From: Escherichia phage Gostya9 | Strand: one strand, 5' to 3' | Length of the DNA stretch: 64,000 bases | Sequence record: NC_047979.1 | Shown: positions 4,214-21,668 of the stretch, piece after piece | Numbering within the stretch: position 1 is the first letter of the stretch | How the letters are laid out: each line of letters begins with the position of its first letter | The notes under the pieces: generated by a model | Told to the model about the DNA's origin: nothing | What the model saw: only the letters and a program-made list of their open reading frames with translations | The model's database searches: none | Position numbers and translations under genes: made by a program

Positions 4214-6544
4214 TTAGATAGTACAACCACCAGAAGCACAGCCCGCTGCTTCTTCACCAGCCCCACCACCATTTGCAGTGTTGAAGTTAGCATAATACCA
4301 AGTCTTCCAACCATATTTAACAGCAGTCATGAAATCACGAACTACTACTGGGCCAGGAATAATTTCATTCTCAAACTTGGTGTAGTCATAGTACATATTC
4401 GTACTGATAGACTGACTGAAGAATTTCTGCATAGTTGCTACCCATTTGATCCATTCAATACGATCCACATCATAAGCCAGTTTATAGCTCATGAGAGTAT
4501 CCCAATCAGTTGCACCTGGAGCGATTGCAATTACTTTATTCACTGCACTACCCTTGATAGATACAATCTTACGAGGTGGTTCAATAGAGTTAGTAACCCC
4601 CAACAGAACGGAAGAACTTTCTCCAGGCATCTGCGCAGTCAGAACAGAGTTACGCATACCGTATTTCAGAATATCTGCACGCAGAGATTCCCAATCCATT
4701 TCTAGACCTACGGATACCAGCTCATCAACAGTTTTCTTATACGTGTCGATTACCAGTGTTCCTTTAGATGGTTTAGTACGATTAAACCATTCACACGCAC
4801 CTTGCTCTTTGGCTAGACGTACAGAGGCTTTATGCAGGAAGTAAGACAGTTTTTCAGCTTCACGATGAATCCAGTTACGTGCTTCAACGCCTTCATAAGC
4901 CAAACCTTCCGCCGCCATTGCACCTGCTGCGTTCATCAGACCAATACCAACGTTACGACGTTTCTTAGCTGTATATTCCATAGTTGGGAACGGGTAATCC
5001 TGAATTTCAATGATGGTATCAACGAATTTCAGAAGAATATAGCAAGTTTTTTCCCACTCAGCCAGAGATTCCATGCGTCCAAGTACAACACCACCTAAGT
5101 TACACAGAGATACTTCCCCAATATCCTCCGGCTTCATTTGATCAAGTTGTTCTTTTGTTTTATACAGCTCTGTAATGTGGTGGAATGGGCGTGTAGGCTG
5201 AGTAATTTCAAGGCATAAGTTACTCATACGGATCGGATCAAGGAAGTTACCGTGACGATTAGATTCCCCGATGTGGTGCGCATACATACGTCCTGTTTCC
5301 ATTCGGATACGTAGCCAAGTATCTAGGATTTCTTTTGCAGAGACTTTAGGAGCTGCTGGAACTGTTTTTCCTTCGTGGTCGATCTTTGTAAGAGATGCCA
5401 CACGTTTCTCCGCTGCCGCATAGATTTCTTCAAATTTAGCCTCGTCATCACTATAAAACGCTTCATGAACTTCTGGAGCATAGAAGTATGACATTAGCGT
5501 AATATCTTCATTTTTCAGATAACGTTTTAACAAAAGATTATTAAAGTTCAGAGAATAATCCATCTTATCGATTTTATTCTCGTCTGTAGCACGTTGTTGC
5601 TTAACCTGCATCAACTGAATGATTTCAGGGTCAAAGTAAGGATAGGATACAGTAGCAGAACCACCACGAGTTTGCTGAGTATTAGCCTTTACTGATCGGT
5701 CAATGTGTCGATAATATGGCAGTTTTCCGGAATGCGGGAATGCCCCGTTTCGCACCGGATCAGCAATTGATCGGCTTTCAAGATGATACCCGATTCCCGC
5801 TCTGGCTGCAACCATTTTGAAGACGATGTGTTCGGCTGTGTCGATTGAATCCAATGTGTCAGTGGAATCAACGAGGCAACAACTAGCAAATCCACGGTCA
5901 CTAGAGCGCAAGCCAACCAATGGCGGCGTAGGAACGTTGATCTTGTGGAGTGACATTGCATTGTAGAGATCGATTGCATCTAGAATTGTCCAGTTAGGTT
6001 GAGATAGCATCGCCATTGCCATGCCCATATAGGCAAACTGCGGGGTTTCGTAAATTTCGCCAGTTGCGATATTACGACGGGAATACTTATCAAAGAATTG
6101 TTTCAGTCCTCCACTAGTGAAAAGACGGTCGCGATCATGGTCGATAACCTGATTCAGAGCCTCAAACTGCTCATCGGTAATCCATGCACTCATGTCTTCC
6201 CATGCACCTACACTAACCATATGATCGTGGAAGAAGCGTAGAGAAGGCGGTTCGAAGGAATCATAAAGGCGTTTACGCATCTGCGCAAGACGTAATTCCT
6301 TTGCTGGCACGTCGTATGCTGGGTTATCTTTGATAAGACTTTCAGCAGCTTTAATTAACGCATCCATCAGAGTATCGGAATCTACAACCCCTTTAGGTAG
6401 AGTTTTTTGAGCAGCCATAGTAATGGCTGACCAACTTACATCAACTGTTTTGCAACCATACTCTGCCCAACCATTGAGTTTTTCAGGAGCAAAGTCTTCT
6501 ACAGTACCGTCACGTTTAATTACTTTTTCAATGCGATGGCTCAT
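4214..6544 (-). CDS. nrdA: Ribonucleotide reductase class Ia alpha subunit
   Basis: ATP-cone N-terminus (MSHRIEKVIKRDGTVEDF), large catalytic body, C-terminal Cys pair (CASGGCTI). Start moved to the ATG at 6544, which has an aaggaaaa RBS; the track ORF extends to 6649. Confidence 0.9.
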   Translation of the reverse strand: MSHRIEKVIKRDGTVEDFAPEKLNGWAEYGCKTVDVSWSAITMAAQKTLPKGVVDSDTLMDALIKAAESLIKDNPAYDVPAKELRLAQMRKRLYDSFEPPSLRFFHDHMVSVGAWEDMSAWITDEQFEALNQVIDHDRDRLFTSGGLKQFFDKYSRRNIATGEIYETPQFAYMGMAMAMLSQPNWTILDAIDLYNAMSLHKINVPTPPLVGLRSSDRGFASCCLVDSTDTLDSIDTAEHIVFKMVAARAGIGYHLESRSIADPVRNGAFPHSGKLPYYRHIDRSVKANTQQTRGGSATVSYPYFDPEIIQLMQVKQQRATDENKIDKMDYSLNFNNLLLKRYLKNEDITLMSYFYAPEVHEAFYSDDEAKFEEIYAAAEKRVASLTKIDHEGKTVPAAPKVSAKEILDTWLRIRMETGRMYAHHIGESNRHGNFLDPIRMSNLCLEITQPTRPFHHITELYKTKEQLDQMKPEDIGEVSLCNLGGVVLGRMESLAEWEKTCYILLKFVDTIIEIQDYPFPTMEYTAKKRRNVGIGLMNAAGAMAAEGLAYEGVEARNWIHREAEKLSYFLHKASVRLAKEQGACEWFNRTKPSKGTLVIDTYKKTVDELVSVGLEMDWESLRADILKYGMRNSVLTAQMPGESSSVLLGVTNSIEPPRKIVSIKGSAVNKVIAIAPGATDWDTLMSYKLAYDVDRIEWIKWVATMQKFFSQSISTNMYYDYTKFENEIIPGPVVVRDFMTAVKYGWKTWYYANFNTANGGGAGEEAAGCASGGCTI

Positions 6545-18558: not shown

Positions 18559-18867
18559 ATGAGCGATCAGGTAAACCAAAACTATGAAGGACACGTTGAT
18601 GATCAGTCAATCCTTCTATGGGAAAAAGAAGGGGAACAAATAAGATTGACAGTATCTGAATTTCGTGGGAATCTATACATGGGAATTAGGTATTGGCTCC
18701 AGGATATTACTGGAGAATGGTTTCCAACGAAATCCGGCTTCTCTTTTCCGTACACTCTAGAAACTACTTCGCAGCTATTCTATGCTTTTACGCAAATCCT
18801 TAGTGAATCTGAGGTTCTTGCCGAAGTACAGAAACGAGCTGAAGAACTCAAAGCCAAGAATGCCTAG
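18559..18867 (+). CDS. Hypothetical protein (102 aa)
   Basis: ORF followed by a terminator hairpin. Confidence 0.45.
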   Translation: MSDQVNQNYEGHVDDQSILLWEKEGEQIRLTVSEFRGNLYMGIRYWLQDITGEWFPTKSGFSFPYTLETTSQLFYAFTQILSESEVLAEVQKRAEELKAKNA

Positions 18868-18883
18868 TTCTTGGCTTTTTCTT
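18853..18883 (+). terminator. Rho-independent terminator
   Basis: gccaagaa-tgcctag-ttcttggc followed by tttttc. Confidence 0.6.
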
Positions 18884-18894
18884 TATAAATGTAT

Positions 18895-18923
18895 TTGCTT
18901 TCAACTCAGTTTTGTTATATAAT
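18895..18923 (+). promoter_or_regulatory. Early promoter TTGCTT-17-TATAAT
   Basis: gtatTTGCTTtcaactcagttttgttaTATAATatttatataaatt. Confidence 0.5.
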
Positions 18924-18954
18924 ATTTATATAAATTAATGAGAGATATAAATAA

Positions 18955-19926
18955 ATGACTAATGTAAAAGAATTTATTAAACGCTGTCAAGAAGCATATT
19001 ATCAGGGCATGTCTTTAATCTCTGATGAGGAGTATGATCGCCTGGTAAAACGCTTCCCGTTAGAGGAAGAGATCGGGCCTAAGGGTGATATTCCACACCT
19101 ATATCGTATGTATTCTTTACAGAAAGTTTATTATAATCGTGGAGATAAACCCCCATTTGACCCGTTAGGTCAAGTAGAAACTGATAAGTTAGATGGTTGT
19201 GCGATTTCCCTGCTATATATTAACGGTGAATTTGTTCAAGCACTAACTCGTGGTAATGGTATTCTGGGAAATGATGTCACAAGCAACGTAAGATTGCTGA
19301 ACATCCCTAAAAAGATTTCCCAAAAAGTACCTACTCAAATCACTGGTGAAGTTCTAATTACAAAAGAAGTAGAAAATAAACGTAACTTTGCCTCTGGTGC
19401 TATTAACCTCAAAGATAGTGATGATTTCATGCAACGTATCGGGGAAGGTGGTTTAATCTTCGTTGCATACGGTATCCAGTGTTCTGCTGAATCTGTAGGT
19501 ATTACAGAAGCGTATTTAAAAGATATGCTTTGGCTAGAGAATGAGAACTTCTTAACAGTTGTTAATGTGCGTTCCTTCTTTAAATGGATTCCGACGGACG
19601 GTAAAGTTGTTCGTATTAATGACAATAACAAATTCTTCCGTGAAGGTTGGACTAATAAATTTCCTCGTGGGGCATTCGCTATTAAAGAGGATGAAGAAGG
19701 CGAGATTACAACTCTTACTAAAGTTGAATGGCAGGTAGGGGCTTCTGGTAAAGTAACTCCAGTCGGTTATTTTGAACCAGTAATTATTGATGATGCTACA
19801 ATTGTTAAAGCGACTCTTAATAATGTTGATTATATTAACTCTCTCGATCTAGAGATCGGTTGCCAGATTCGAGTGATTCGTGCTGGTGGTGTAATCCCGT
19901 GCATAGTAGAGCGAGTTTATGATTAA
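18955..19926 (+). CDS. NAD-dependent DNA ligase, adenylation-domain subunit (LigA-like N-terminal half)
   Basis: Adenylation-site KxDG motif (ETDKLDGCAISL); ends after the OB-like region, with the remaining ligase domains in the next ORF. Confidence 0.75.
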   Translation: MTNVKEFIKRCQEAYYQGMSLISDEEYDRLVKRFPLEEEIGPKGDIPHLYRMYSLQKVYYNRGDKPPFDPLGQVETDKLDGCAISLLYINGEFVQALTRGNGILGNDVTSNVRLLNIPKKISQKVPTQITGEVLITKEVENKRNFASGAINLKDSDDFMQRIGEGGLIFVAYGIQCSAESVGITEAYLKDMLWLENENFLTVVNVRSFFKWIPTDGKVVRINDNNKFFREGWTNKFPRGAFAIKEDEEGEITTLTKVEWQVGASGKVTPVGYFEPVIIDDATIVKATLNNVDYINSLDLEIGCQIRVIRAGGVIPCIVERVYD

Positions 19927-19976
19927 TACATAACCCTTTGCTACCCCTCTACCATATCGGAATTATAAAGTGGTTA

Positions 19977-20005
19977 TTGACATTTTCGCCGCTTAGGTAT
20001 ATACT
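19977..20005 (+). promoter_or_regulatory. Promoter TTGACA-17-TATACT inside the ligase split
   Basis: TTGACAttttcgccgcttaggtaTATACT. Confidence 0.4.
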
Positions 20006-20069
20006 ATTATCATTCAGTTGAGGGATAGAAAGTTATGGCGAGGGTAAGCAAAGTTAGTTAAAATTGTAG

Positions 20070-20098
20070 TTGCTAAATGCTTAAATACTTGCTATAAT
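20070..20098 (+). promoter_or_regulatory. Early promoter TTGCTA-17-TATAAT inside the ligase split
   Basis: aaaattgtagTTGCTAaatgcttaaatacttgcTATAATatttatataaattgataaggaag. Confidence 0.5.
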
Positions 20099-20125
20099 AT
20101 TTATATAAATTGATAAGGAAGAAAT

Positions 20126-20908
20126 TTGATGAAAATCGAAATTCCAACACAATGTCCCTCTTGTGGTTCTAAGCTAGATCTTGTCAACGGACAATTATTC
20201 TGTCGTAATAAGTCCAACTGTCCAGCGCAATCAAGTAAGTTAATTGAGAACTTCTGTACAAAAATGAAGTTAAAGGGCTTTGGCCCGAAAACTATTGAGA
20301 AGCTGGAGCTGACGAAGATTTCAGAACTATTTTACCTAACCGAAGAAGATTTGGTTAGAGCCGTGGGTAGCAAGGTTGCCGCTAAGTTAATTAGCGAATT
20401 AAATACTAAAGTTCGCGGAGACATTGACTTTGGTTCAGTTCTCGGTTCTTTAGGAATCCCTCTAATTGGAGAGGTTGCAGCAAAGAAATTATCCCAAAAT
20501 TGCACTAGCTTCCACGATGTGAAGGCTGACGGCAGGGCTGGAGAAAACTATAAAGCCTGGCTAAATTCCCCACAAGGCAAGGATGTTATCGAATTACCGT
20601 GGAAATTCACAACCGGTATTAAAGGTGCTAAAGCTGAGGTCAGCATTACTGATGGTCTAGTAGCCCAACCAAATGGAATCACGGTGTGTATTACCGGATC
20701 TTTGCAAGATTTTGCAAATAGAACGGATGCAACAAACTATCTAGAAGGTCTAGGGTATACTGTTAAAAAATCAGTTACCAAAGACGTTAAATACCTCATC
20801 TGTGAGGATGAATCTAAGCGTTCTTCCTCATCTTATAAGAAAGCCGAAACGAATGGGATAGAAATCCTGTCGATTAAAGAACTATTGGAGAAAAATAATA
20901 ATGTCTAA
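20126..20908 (+). CDS. NAD-dependent DNA ligase, Zn-finger/HhH/BRCT subunit (LigA-like C-terminal half)
   Basis: Zn finger CPSCGSKLDLVNGQLFCRNKSNC, HhH-like segments, C-terminal BRCT-like region; own aaggaag RBS. Confidence 0.7.
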   Translation: MMKIEIPTQCPSCGSKLDLVNGQLFCRNKSNCPAQSSKLIENFCTKMKLKGFGPKTIEKLELTKISELFYLTEEDLVRAVGSKVAAKLISELNTKVRGDIDFGSVLGSLGIPLIGEVAAKKLSQNCTSFHDVKADGRAGENYKAWLNSPQGKDVIELPWKFTTGIKGAKAEVSITDGLVAQPNGITVCITGSLQDFANRTDATNYLEGLGYTVKKSVTKDVKYLICEDESKRSSSSYKKAETNGIEILSIKELLEKNNNV

Positions 20909-21668
20909 ACTGAACTGGAACGTAGAAGGTGTAACCGAGTCTCTGAAAGCAAAAGCCACTGCTCTGGGTGTTGCTGTAATCTCTCAAGAACAAGTAGCTG
21001 CTATCGCTGCTGAACTGGCTGCTGAAACTGGCAAAGACGTTACCGCTCGCTCTGTTGGCTCTAAGCTGCGTAAAGAAGGTTTCGAAGTACAGAAAGCTAA
21101 CGAAGTACAGAAATCCCCGTGGACTCCTGAGCAGGAAGCTGAACTGGTTGATTTCCTGAACTCTCATGCTGGTCAGTATACTTATGCTGAAATCGCTGCT
21201 GCTGTAGCTGGTGGTCAATTTGGTGCTAAGCAGGTACAGGGTAAGATCCTGAGTCTGGAAATGACCGCTTCTGTTAAACCAACTGAAAAAGCTGCTGCTG
21301 TTCGTTCCTTCACTCCTGATGAAGAAACTGATTTTGTTAATCAGGTTGTTGCTGGTGCTACTATTGAAGCTATTGCTGCTCACTTCGGTCGTAATATCAA
21401 GCAGATCCGTGGTAAAGCTCTGAGTCTGCTTCGTGAAGGTCGTATCGCTGCTATGCCGGTACAGGAAACTTCAAGTGCTAAAACTCGTGAAGATCTGCTA
21501 GAAGGTCTGGATCTGGCTAACATGACTGTTGCTGAGATCGCTGAGAAAACTGGTAAGTCTGAGCGCGGTGTTAAATCTATGCTGTCTCGTCGTGGTCTGG
21601 TTGCTAAGGACTATGATGGTGCCGCTAAGCGTGCTAAACTGGATGCAAAAGCTGCGGCTGCTGAATAA
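20901..21668 (+). CDS. Hypothetical protein with four tandem about 45-aa HTH-like repeats, optimal-codon rich
   Basis: Repeats of T.(A/E)EIA....G.....(V/I).(G/S)K.LSL...G; E. coli-optimal codons (ctg, cgt, gct, ggt); followed by a strong terminator. Confidence 0.6.
   Translation: MSKLNWNVEGVTESLKAKATALGVAVISQEQVAAIAAELAAETGKDVTARSVGSKLRKEGFEVQKANEVQKSPWTPEQEAELVDFLNSHAGQYTYAEIAAAVAGGQFGAKQVQGKILSLEMTASVKPTEKAAAVRSFTPDEETDFVNQVVAGATIEAIAAHFGRNIKQIRGKALSLLREGRIAAMPVQETSSAKTREDLLEGLDLANMTVAEIAEKTGKSERGVKSMLSRRGLVAKDYDGAAKRAKLDAKAAAAE

Follow-up and report, generated by a model that had tools for sequence, protein, structure and literature searches.

ligA and ligB of Escherichia phage Gostya9: a very probable T5-type two-subunit NAD+-dependent DNA ligase with a constrained, promoter-bearing intergenic region

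Two neighboring genes of Escherichia phage Gostya9 (NC_047979.1), ligA and ligB, very probably encode a T5-type two-subunit NAD+-dependent DNA ligase, with a constrained intergenic region that bears promoters. We analysed a stretch of 64,000 nt of this genome (hereafter the window, to which all coordinates refer). Its 97–98% nucleotide identity to T5 and DT571/2 identifies Gostya9 as a T5-type phage of the genus Tequintavirus. The gene pair is the already annotated T5-type ligA/ligB pair: it is real and conserved, and it is not new. In T5 the same locus holds ligA (T5.116) and ligB (T5.117; GenBank AY543070, AY692264 and NC_005859), which the T5 records name as subunits A and B. The two regions are 97.2% identical across 2301 nt with no indels and differ by point changes only, while LigA and LigB are 99.4% and 98.1% identical to their T5 counterparts. 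The flanking genes T5.115, D5 and D6 are shared, as is the spacer length of 202 nt. Besides ligA and ligB, the T5 annotation of this region lists three promoters, P-K28b and P-K28a among them.

GenBank has carried annotations of the T5 genes and the P-K28a/b promoters for two decades, and a two-chain homologue has already been solved. The original prediction, made from the Gostya9 sequence, described two ligase ORFs about 200 bp apart. They are present as described, with three details corrected. Its guess that the split is a T5 family trait is borne out by the T5 annotation and by the split in every relative examined across the Demerecviridae and related environmental viral contigs.

Subunit architecture and the split point

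The catalytic subunit, LigA (323 aa), is encoded by ligA at 18955..19926 on the plus strand and comprises the Ia motif, the nucleotidyltransferase (NTase) domain and the OB fold. Pfam models for DNA_ligase_aden (PF01653, 83.5 bits, cut-off 27) and DNA_ligase_OB (PF03120, 78.3 bits, cut-off 32.9; LigA residues 252–321, following the NTase domain) are both matched. The KxDG lysine is K78 in KLDG (nt 19186–19197). The adenylation domain had been predicted to end at 19926. The KxDG motif of that claim stands, but the ORF extends beyond adenylation into the OB fold, and the break therefore falls after the OB fold rather than after the adenylation domain. The N-terminal Ia motif, which confers NAD specificity, reads YY...ISDEEYD and aligns with residues 23–52 of 1v9p (AYYQGMSLISDEEYDRL against RYYVLADPEISDAEYDRL). 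This alignment segment is weak; Y15, Y16, G18, I22, S23 and E26 are invariant among six divergent LigA subunits.

The DNA-binding subunit, LigB (259 aa), is encoded at 20129..20908 on the same strand and comprises a Cys4 zinc finger, an HhH region and a BRCT domain. All four zinc-finger cysteines (C9, C12, C25 and C31) are intact, and the BRCT domain scores 35.1 bits against PF00533 (cut-off 21.3). Because the Pfam match to the HhH region lies below the gathering score (24.3 versus 27 bits), its assignment rests on alignment to solved LigA chains: LigB aligns to residues 400–653 of 1dgs and to 2owo from residue 402.

The start of ligB had been placed at 20126, with its own ribosome-binding site. 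The ribosome-binding site holds: a Shine-Dalgarno sequence, AAGGAAG (20115..20121, plus strand), lies 7 nt 5' of ATG 20129 and is conserved in the comparison with a Klebsiella phage. The start codon does not. TTG 20126 comes from a mechanical ORF list and is replaced by TCA in the Klebsiella phage homologue, whereas the T5 annotation begins ligB at ATG 20129 and the solved LigB homologue likewise begins at its own methionine (MKIQIPT). The true start is, as judged from these comparisons, almost certainly ATG 20129. Measured from the end of ligA, the spacer is thus 202 nt long with the ATG as start and 199 nt with the TTG.

Aligning both ORFs to single-chain LigA, as had been proposed, puts the break between the OB fold and the zinc finger. 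LigA residues 214–320 align with residues 284–390 of E. coli LigA (2owo), LigB residues 4–123 align with residues 402–529, and only about 6 linker residues of the E. coli enzyme are unaccounted for at the break. On this alignment the polypeptide is broken in the short linker from OB to Zn, at roughly E. coli LigA residues 394–399. Single-chain bacterial LigA (E. coli 2OWO, T. filiformis 1DGS/1V9P) and the phage pair share the domain order Ia, NTase, OB, Zn, HhH, BRCT, together with the catalytic KxDG, the Ia motif and the Cys4 finger. However, the bacterial enzyme is one chain of about 670 aa and the phage enzyme is made of 323 + 259 aa encoded behind separate promoters, with a more compact NTase region. 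In place of the single polypeptide that characterizes the LigA family, we found two ORFs in different frames and a 202-nt spacer with stops.

The closest structural counterpart is a two-chain ligase, PDB 9HU3/9I5I, which we compared by sequence and molecule names. Chain A (339 aa, E 1e–103) is deposited with chain B, 'DNA ligase subunit B' (248 aa, E 1e–79), and both are 100% identical to proteins of Providencia phage vB_PreS_PR1, a member of another genus of T5-like phages. The PR1 pair is about 54–58% identical to that of Gostya9 (tblastn); it is likewise encoded by two genes and broken at the same point: its chain A ends in ...IVEKVED (...IVERVYD here) and its chain B starts with MKIQIPTHCP (MKIEIPTQCP here). 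Full-text literature searches returned no paper behind 9HU3 and no biochemistry of the T5 enzyme or of a two-subunit phage NAD+ ligase. By analogy with the PR1 homologue, the Gostya9 subunits would form an active heterodimer. LigA, with its NAD-binding Ia motif, adenylation domain and OB fold, and LigB, with its Zn finger, HhH DNA-binding region and BRCT domain, would be translated independently and would assemble non-covalently into the equivalent of a single-chain bacterial LigA.

The halves could conceivably be joined covalently, since phages have both split inteins, which act after translation, and ribosomal bypass during translation, of the kind seen in T4 gene 60. The six or so linker residues between the end of LigA and the start of LigB leave no room for a split intein, the Pfam scan of the ORFs found no intein or Hint domain, and the PDB entry lists two separate chains. 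Bypass would have to span 202 nt in Gostya9 and as much as 3.5 kb in relatives, across stops in every frame and with an independent Shine-Dalgarno sequence and ATG on the far side. We give the joining of the halves next to no credence.

Single-chain LigA is the rule in bacteria and the host has an NAD-dependent ligase, so that the split might be read as a sequencing frameshift or as a decaying pseudogene in a phage that relies on host LigA. The ORFs lie in different frames, however, and the spacer holds 4–7 stop codons per frame in all three frames. The KxDG and Ia motifs are intact, as are the four zinc-finger cysteines, both halves are under purifying selection (dN/dS 0.04–0.12 for ligA and 0.08–0.10 for ligB), and the same arrangement recurs in 428 phage records and in all 96 viral loci compared. 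A sequencing frameshift, which the original prediction had itself raised as an objection, and a pseudogene are refuted by these comparative data; we regard this reading as extremely improbable.

Intergenic promoters and expression of the two halves

Upstream of ligA, a terminator-like hairpin with a T-run (18850..18888, plus strand; 12-pair stem, loop of 5, tail TTCTTTATAA) lies 3' of the T5.115 homologue (18559–18867, identified as an open reading frame and from the T5 annotation). This predicted terminator sets ligA apart from upstream transcription. It is followed by the putative early promoter of ligA (18895..18923, plus strand), with –35 TTGCTT (18895–18900), a 17-nt spacer and –10 TATAAT (18918–18923), inside a T5-annotated promoter that maps to about 18875–18949 of the window. 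A simple promoter scan missed this site because its –35 hexamer matches at 3 of 6 positions only.

Two promoter-like elements had been predicted between the genes, and they coincide with P-K28b and P-K28a of the T5 record AY543070. P-K28b (19977..20005, plus strand) reads TTGACA-17-TATACT, an 11/12 match, and the T5 annotation maps to about 19957–20031. Its –35 hexamer is invariant among Tequintavirus loci and Klebsiella Sugarlandvirus, as is the sequence running from the –10 through the initially transcribed region. P-K28a (20070..20098, plus strand) reads TTGCTA-17-TATAAT with an extended –10 TG, a 10/12 match, and the T5 annotation maps to about 20050–20124. The P-K28 names reportedly go back to Gentz & Bujard 1985.

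Promoter-like sites are not enriched here: we counted 4 in the AT-rich 2.4-kb region versus 6.1 ± 2.7 in shuffles. What argues for both putative spacer promoters is the match to the T5 annotation, their conservation and the clade-wide position before ligB, not the number of sites. The ligA promoter and P-K28a both carry ATATT (TATAATATT) in the discriminator region, a feature common to T5 early promoters (PMC7472727). They also have a 22-nt module in common, of which no further copies were found in the window at up to 3 mismatches; with two copies only in the window, we rejected it as a dispersed repeat.

The leader downstream of P-K28b contains the 8-codon micro-ORF that had also been predicted (MARVSKVS*, ATG 20035 to TAA 20061, plus strand, with GAGGGA upstream). 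We rejected it as a conserved gene. Klebsiella Sugarlandvirus has TTG in place of the ATG and a 2-nt indel that alters the peptide, and no counterpart was found in a further related locus (L038). On this comparison the micro-ORF is probably not a gene. The spacer as a whole is 95–97% identical where synonymous sites differ by 22–54%, and long identical blocks are kept in the Klebsiella phage although third-codon positions there are about 40% identical. Judged by this conservation, the spacer is an ordinary intergenic region, strongly constrained, with predicted tandem sigma-70 early promoters.

The same data bear on the reading of the spacer as an intron, self-splicing or otherwise removed, whose spliced mRNA would give a single-chain ligase. 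In its favor, the ORFs are neighbors on one strand and follow the domain order, and group I introns are sometimes found in phage DNA-metabolism genes. However, a scan of 18700–21100 against Rfam at E ≤ 1 gave no match in the spacer (two weak matches were both 5' of ligA), the fold of the spacer RNA is ordinary relative to shuffles (z = –0.77), and group I and group II introns are usually longer than 202 nt. Two T5-annotated promoters lie within the spacer and are kept in relatives, ligB has a conserved Shine-Dalgarno sequence and ATG of its own, and in relatives the interval ranges from 63 to 3477 nt and can hold unrelated genes. The PR1 homologue, moreover, is deposited as two chains, with chain B beginning at its own methionine. 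An intron thus has hardly any likelihood, in agreement with the earlier remark that the spacer is not obviously one.

Downstream, the D5 gene (20901..21668, plus strand; an open reading frame and T5 annotation) encodes a DNA-binding protein on which replication and late transcription depend. Its reading frame shares 8 nt with the end of ligB, and the gene is part of a promoter-ligB-D5 unit. No terminator-like site was found in the spacer. Since no terminator follows ligA, read-through from the ligA promoter would be expected to reach ligB, D5 and the downstream replication genes. Initiation at P-K28b and P-K28a would be added for ligB, D5 and the genes downstream, whereas ligA would rely on one promoter. 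The Shine-Dalgarno sequence of ligB is also stronger than that of ligA. Given read-through, two promoters of its own and the stronger Shine-Dalgarno sequence, an excess of LigB would be expected rather than strict balance; the layout thus suggests unbalanced expression favoring LigB over LigA.

Conservation of the split and its possible origin

A search for closely related loci retrieved Tequintavirus only, and distant relatives were reached by an alignment-based search. The same arrangement is present in 428 phage records covering at least 80% of the region, and a split ligA/ligB is annotated in Sugarlandvirus, Novosibvirus, Thalassavirus and Vibrio phage D239. In 96/96 viral loci of T5 type ligA stops directly after the OB fold and ligB starts at the Zn finger. 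No fused ligase was found among these 96 loci or among the best 120 protein matches (44–99% identity) of roughly 1500 relatives; these 120 are all 310–337 aa long bar one partial sequence. A fused 678-aa ligA assigned to 'Acinetobacter phage MD-2021a' was rejected as a member of the clade. Its neighbors are smc, zipA and bfr and its identity is only 30%, and we treat it as a probable ordinary bacterial-type LigA.

The order ligA, intergenic promoter(s), ligB, D5 matches the T5-type two-subunit ligase, and its parts vary to different degrees. The distance between ligA and ligB ranges from 63 to 3477 nt across the clade, and cargo genes (GIY-YIG, T5orf172, NADAR, DprA-like) sometimes lie between them. 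At any distance, 36/41 loci have a sigma-70 site that matches at no fewer than 10/12 positions and whose perfect TATAAT ends 29–47 nt 5' of the ligB start. A D5 homologue adjoins ligB at –26 to +32 nt in 38/38, in every case where the locus extends to the end of ligB. Near-duplicates are among the 41 loci, so each count refers to loci and not to independent lineages. A promoter (10/12 or better) also precedes ligA in 24/40 loci, and hence the ligB promoter appears typical of these early regions and not unique to the split.

These patterns can be read as a split that is functional and not neutral, in which LigB is made together with D5 from its own promoters, exceeds LigA and also acts without it, while the break point was created by the insertion of a mobile gene and persists as an insertion hot spot. 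LigB might then be a nick- or DNA-binding factor, or a factor recruiting by way of its BRCT domain in replication. The near-constant ligB promoter and D5 junction, set against a ligA-ligB distance that varies 55-fold, favor such a reading, as do the stronger Shine-Dalgarno sequence and three promoters of ligB versus one for ligA. Mobile genes do occur at the junction: in Salmonella phage SP3 a GIY-YIG gene lies directly 3' of ligA, beside a divergent 200-nt tract of ligA, and about 10 environmental loci have genes with a T5orf172 domain between the halves. However, promoters commonly precede early genes of these phages, so the one before ligB may be incidental. Few relatives carry the GIY-YIG insertion (3 records from 2 phages), and the T5orf172 matches barely exceed the Pfam cut-off (22.9 and 21.6 versus 20 bits). 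We consider the functional split unlikely.

Phage 'genes in pieces' that arise through free-standing homing endonuclease genes, of which T4 topoisomerase gp39/gp60 is an example, offer a comparison. In Aeromonas phage Aeh1, nrdA is reportedly split by mobE. In these cases two adjacent genes encode an enzyme that elsewhere forms a single chain, and their products reassemble. Genes of the GIY-YIG family likewise lie at the ligA-ligB junction in some relatives of Gostya9. In contrast, the junctions of Gostya9 and most Tequintavirus have promoters only and no endonuclease gene. It is distinctly unlikely, on our assessment, that a fixed junction of this kind, possibly derived from a mobile GIY-YIG-type element, serves as a clade-wide boundary between transcription units, with LigB and D5 co-expressed above LigA. 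In that event LigB could also function without LigA, for instance at the site-specific nicks of T5 DNA.

For the very probable two-subunit ligase itself, the comparative picture adds modest value: one fixed split point is universal in a large clade that includes many environmental contigs, and the ligA-ligB interval is a plastic cargo site while the ligB-D5 junction and the ligB promoter are nearly invariant. Overall, the T5-type ligase is a clean natural case of a stably split multidomain enzyme, and it offers a testable prediction, namely that LigA and LigB would be expressed unequally.

The division of the ligase

The NAD-dependent DNA ligase is encoded by two plus-strand genes in the mechanical ORF list, ORF1 (ligA, 18955–19926, 323 aa) and ORF2 (ligB, 20126–20908, 260 aa). 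In ORF1, Pfam recognises the NAD-ligase adenylation domain at 83.5 bits and the NAD-ligase OB fold at 78.3 bits, and K78 is the lysine of its KxDG motif; ORF2 starts with a zinc finger (Cys-x2-Cys-x12-Cys-x5-Cys) and has Pfam matches to BRCT (35.1 bits) and, at lower strength, to HhH motifs. The original prediction of a two-ORF NAD ligase, with adenylation in the first product and Zn finger, HhH and BRCT in the second, was therefore correct. The split itself stands but its placing after the adenylation domain does not: since ORF1 includes the OB fold, the break lies between that domain and the zinc finger. Alignment with solved single-chain ligases defines the split point, LigA residues 214–320 corresponding to E. 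coli LigA 284–390 and LigB residues 4–123 to 402–529, with about six linker residues missing between the halves.

The 2.3-kb region is 97–98% identical to Escherichia phages DT571/2, T5 and SP15, at least 80% of it is covered in 428 phage records, and sequence similarity places the window in Tequintavirus. The T5 record AY543070, which can be aligned with no indels (window coordinate = T5 locus coordinate + 17299), labels ORF1 as ligA (T5.116, subunit A) and ORF2 as ligB (T5.117, subunit B, with its start at the ATG equivalent to window 20129), and carries the labels 'promoter P-K 28b' and 'promoter P-K 28a' in the spacer and a third promoter just 5' of ligA. The earlier suggestion that T5 also has a two-subunit ligase is thus borne out, and the ligA/ligB split, annotated in the type phage, is already known. 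PDB entries 9HU3 and 9I5I each hold two chains, 'DNA ligase (NAD(+))' (339 aa, E 1e–103 to LigA) and 'DNA ligase subunit B' (248 aa, E 1e–79 to LigB), whose ends coincide in position with those of LigA and LigB in the window. Chain A is matched at 100% identity in the T5-like Providencia phage vB_PreS_PR1. A literature search found neither a paper for these entries nor biochemistry of the T5 enzyme.

Other explanations of the interruption were considered. A frameshift is ruled out, since the spacer contains 4–7 stop codons per frame in all three frames and the reading frames of ligA and ligB differ. An intein is ruled out because the loss of merely six or so linker residues relative to E. coli LigA leaves no room for intein halves, and a pseudogene by dN/dS values of 0.04–0.12 for ligA and 0.08–0.10 for ligB. 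Nor is the spacer an intron, in agreement with the earlier view: it has no Rfam match at E ≤ 1, and the fold predicted for its RNA is unremarkable (z = –0.77).

Promoters and leaders of the spacer

A consensus scan recovered both promoter-like elements predicted in the spacer, on the plus strand: the T5 early promoters P-K28b (19977–20005, TTGACA-17-TATACT, 11/12) and P-K28a (20070–20098, TTGCTA-17-TATAAT with an extended –10 TG, 10/12), both annotated in T5. Promoter-like sites in the region are not above shuffled sequences in number (4 versus 6.1 ± 2.7), so the case for these two is made by T5 annotation and conservation. Within Tequintavirus pairs the spacer is 95–97% identical, while synonymous differences reach 42–54% in ligA and 22–30% in ligB. 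In the Klebsiella Sugarlandvirus, where proteins are ∼71% and third-codon positions ∼40% identical, three stretches are unchanged: the P-K28b –35 hexamer, the segment running from the P-K28b –10 into the early part of its leader, and the segment from the P-K28a –10 up to and including the Shine-Dalgarno sequence.

According to a published promoter alignment (PMC7472727), ATATT occurs in the discriminator region of all known T5 early promoters; TATAATATT is read in both the ligA promoter and P-K28a. These two promoters have in common a 25-nt block, TATAATATTTATATAAATTRATRAG (18918–18942 and 20093–20117, 92% identical), spanning the –10 hexamer into the 5' leader. A 22-nt search of the 64-kb window allowing up to 3 mismatches found copies only there (0.01 expected by chance); the two ligase halves thus bear near-identical promoter/leader modules.

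The 8-codon micro-ORF noticed earlier (MARVSKVS and stop, 20035–20061, plus strand) is present in the P-K28b leader. It was rejected as a gene because start and frame are lost in the Klebsiella phage, where TTG replaces ATG and a 2-nt indel alters the peptide, and because the My1-like locus L038 lacks an equivalent.

Distribution of the split and cargo at the junction

Four groups have ligA and ligB annotated as separate genes. The gap between them is 199 nt in Sugarlandvirus, 344 nt in a Novosibvirus Proteus phage, 443 nt in Vibrio phage D239 and 1359 nt in Thalassavirus River4; in the last three it holds, respectively, a small ORF, a 98-aa ORF and three genes, one DprA-like. An alignment-based IMG/VR scan contributed 80 loci out of at least 518 relatives. 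The ligA frame stops 0–48 nt past the end of the OB-fold alignment in all 96 T5-type viral loci (96/96), and wherever the fetched DNA includes ligB, this gene stands apart, between 63 and 3477 nt downstream of ligA. The best 120 matches in a 5.8-billion-protein collection are, bar one partial sequence, 310–337 aa long (46–98% identity). It follows that the split is ancient, fixed at one point and clade-defining; the conjecture of a family trait holds for all T5-type relatives examined.

The sole fused gene met was a bacterial-type ligA (30% identical) on a chromosomal-looking contig. That contig, the 139-kb record CAKLQF020000011.1 labelled 'Acinetobacter phage MD-2021a', has smc, zipA, this full-length ligA and bacterioferritin next to one another and looks like a bacterial chromosome rather than a phage. 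A partial 240-aa protein (P0012) on a 723-bp contig labelled Enterococcus faecalis is 99% identical to the window LigA, and probably reflects contamination of that assembly by a T5-like phage.

Directly after ligA, Salmonella phage SP3 (MG387042, L030 4766–5606) has a 218-aa GIY-YIG ORF (PF01541, 26 bits versus a cut-off of 22.6); the insert occurs in three records representing two phages, with the P-K28b/P-K28a block intact downstream. The last ∼200 nt of SP3 ligA, beside the insert, are just 71–77% identical to every other Tequintavirus locus, versus 86–99% (mostly >90%) for the rest of the gene and 99% for the DNA beyond the insert. This pattern has the look of insertion by a homing endonuclease, the flank having been co-converted or immunised. 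About ten environmental loci (L052, L054, L061, L067, L069, L071, L075, L080, L081 and L098) carry between ligA and ligB, just 5' of the ligB promoter, a ∼125-aa ORF with a T5orf172 domain (PF10544, 21.6–22.9 bits, barely over the cut-off of 20). Among the further inserts are genes for a NADAR-domain protein, a 2OG-Fe(II) oxygenase and a DprA-like protein. The NADAR gene (PF08719, 110 bits) lies at 4953–5609 in L039, a Proteus phage relative, and is missing from the otherwise close L040. Free-standing homing endonucleases make 'genes in pieces' in T4-like phages. The junction cargo resembles that situation, an analogy suggesting that a homing-endonuclease-type event may have given rise to the ligase split.

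The slot between the T5.115 homologue and ligA (window ∼18880–18955) is a second variable site adjoining the ligase: DT571/2 (L002 654–854) and SP15 (L003 655–927) have one more short ORF there, phrog_8267 or phrog_35018, which is missing from the window and T5.

Expression of LigB and D5

In 36/41 loci the ligB start is preceded by a sigma-70 promoter match (10/12 or better, TATAAT perfect) that ends 29–47 nt away, whether ligA lies 63 nt or 3.5 kb off. Promoters of at least 10/12 also precede ligA in 24/40 loci, making the ligB promoter characteristic but not unique; evidently, these phages place promoters before many early genes. A downstream D5 homologue begins –26 to +32 nt from ligB in all 38 loci where the ligB end is present. 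In the window the two overlap by 8 nt (20901–20908), the D5 ATG at 20901 lying within the last ligB codons. A junction this tight in all 38 relatives suggests translational coupling of ligB and D5.

Scanning found a terminator-like hairpin (18850–18878) upstream of the ligA promoter and none between ligA and ligB. From this arrangement ligA would be transcribed from one promoter, and ligB, D5 and downstream genes from three: the ligA promoter, P-K28b and P-K28a. The ligB Shine-Dalgarno sequence (AAGGAAG, 7 nt from the ATG) is also better than that of ligA (GAGAG). Together, the extra promoters and better ribosome-binding site predict an excess of LigB over LigA rather than exact stoichiometry, which, as far as sequence goes, answers the earlier question of how the halves are balanced. 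Overall, the observation is confirmed and its original interpretation supported, for a feature that is already known. The one somewhat novel reading, judged unlikely, is that the split serves to make LigB alongside D5 and independently of LigA, or that there is a function specific to LigB.
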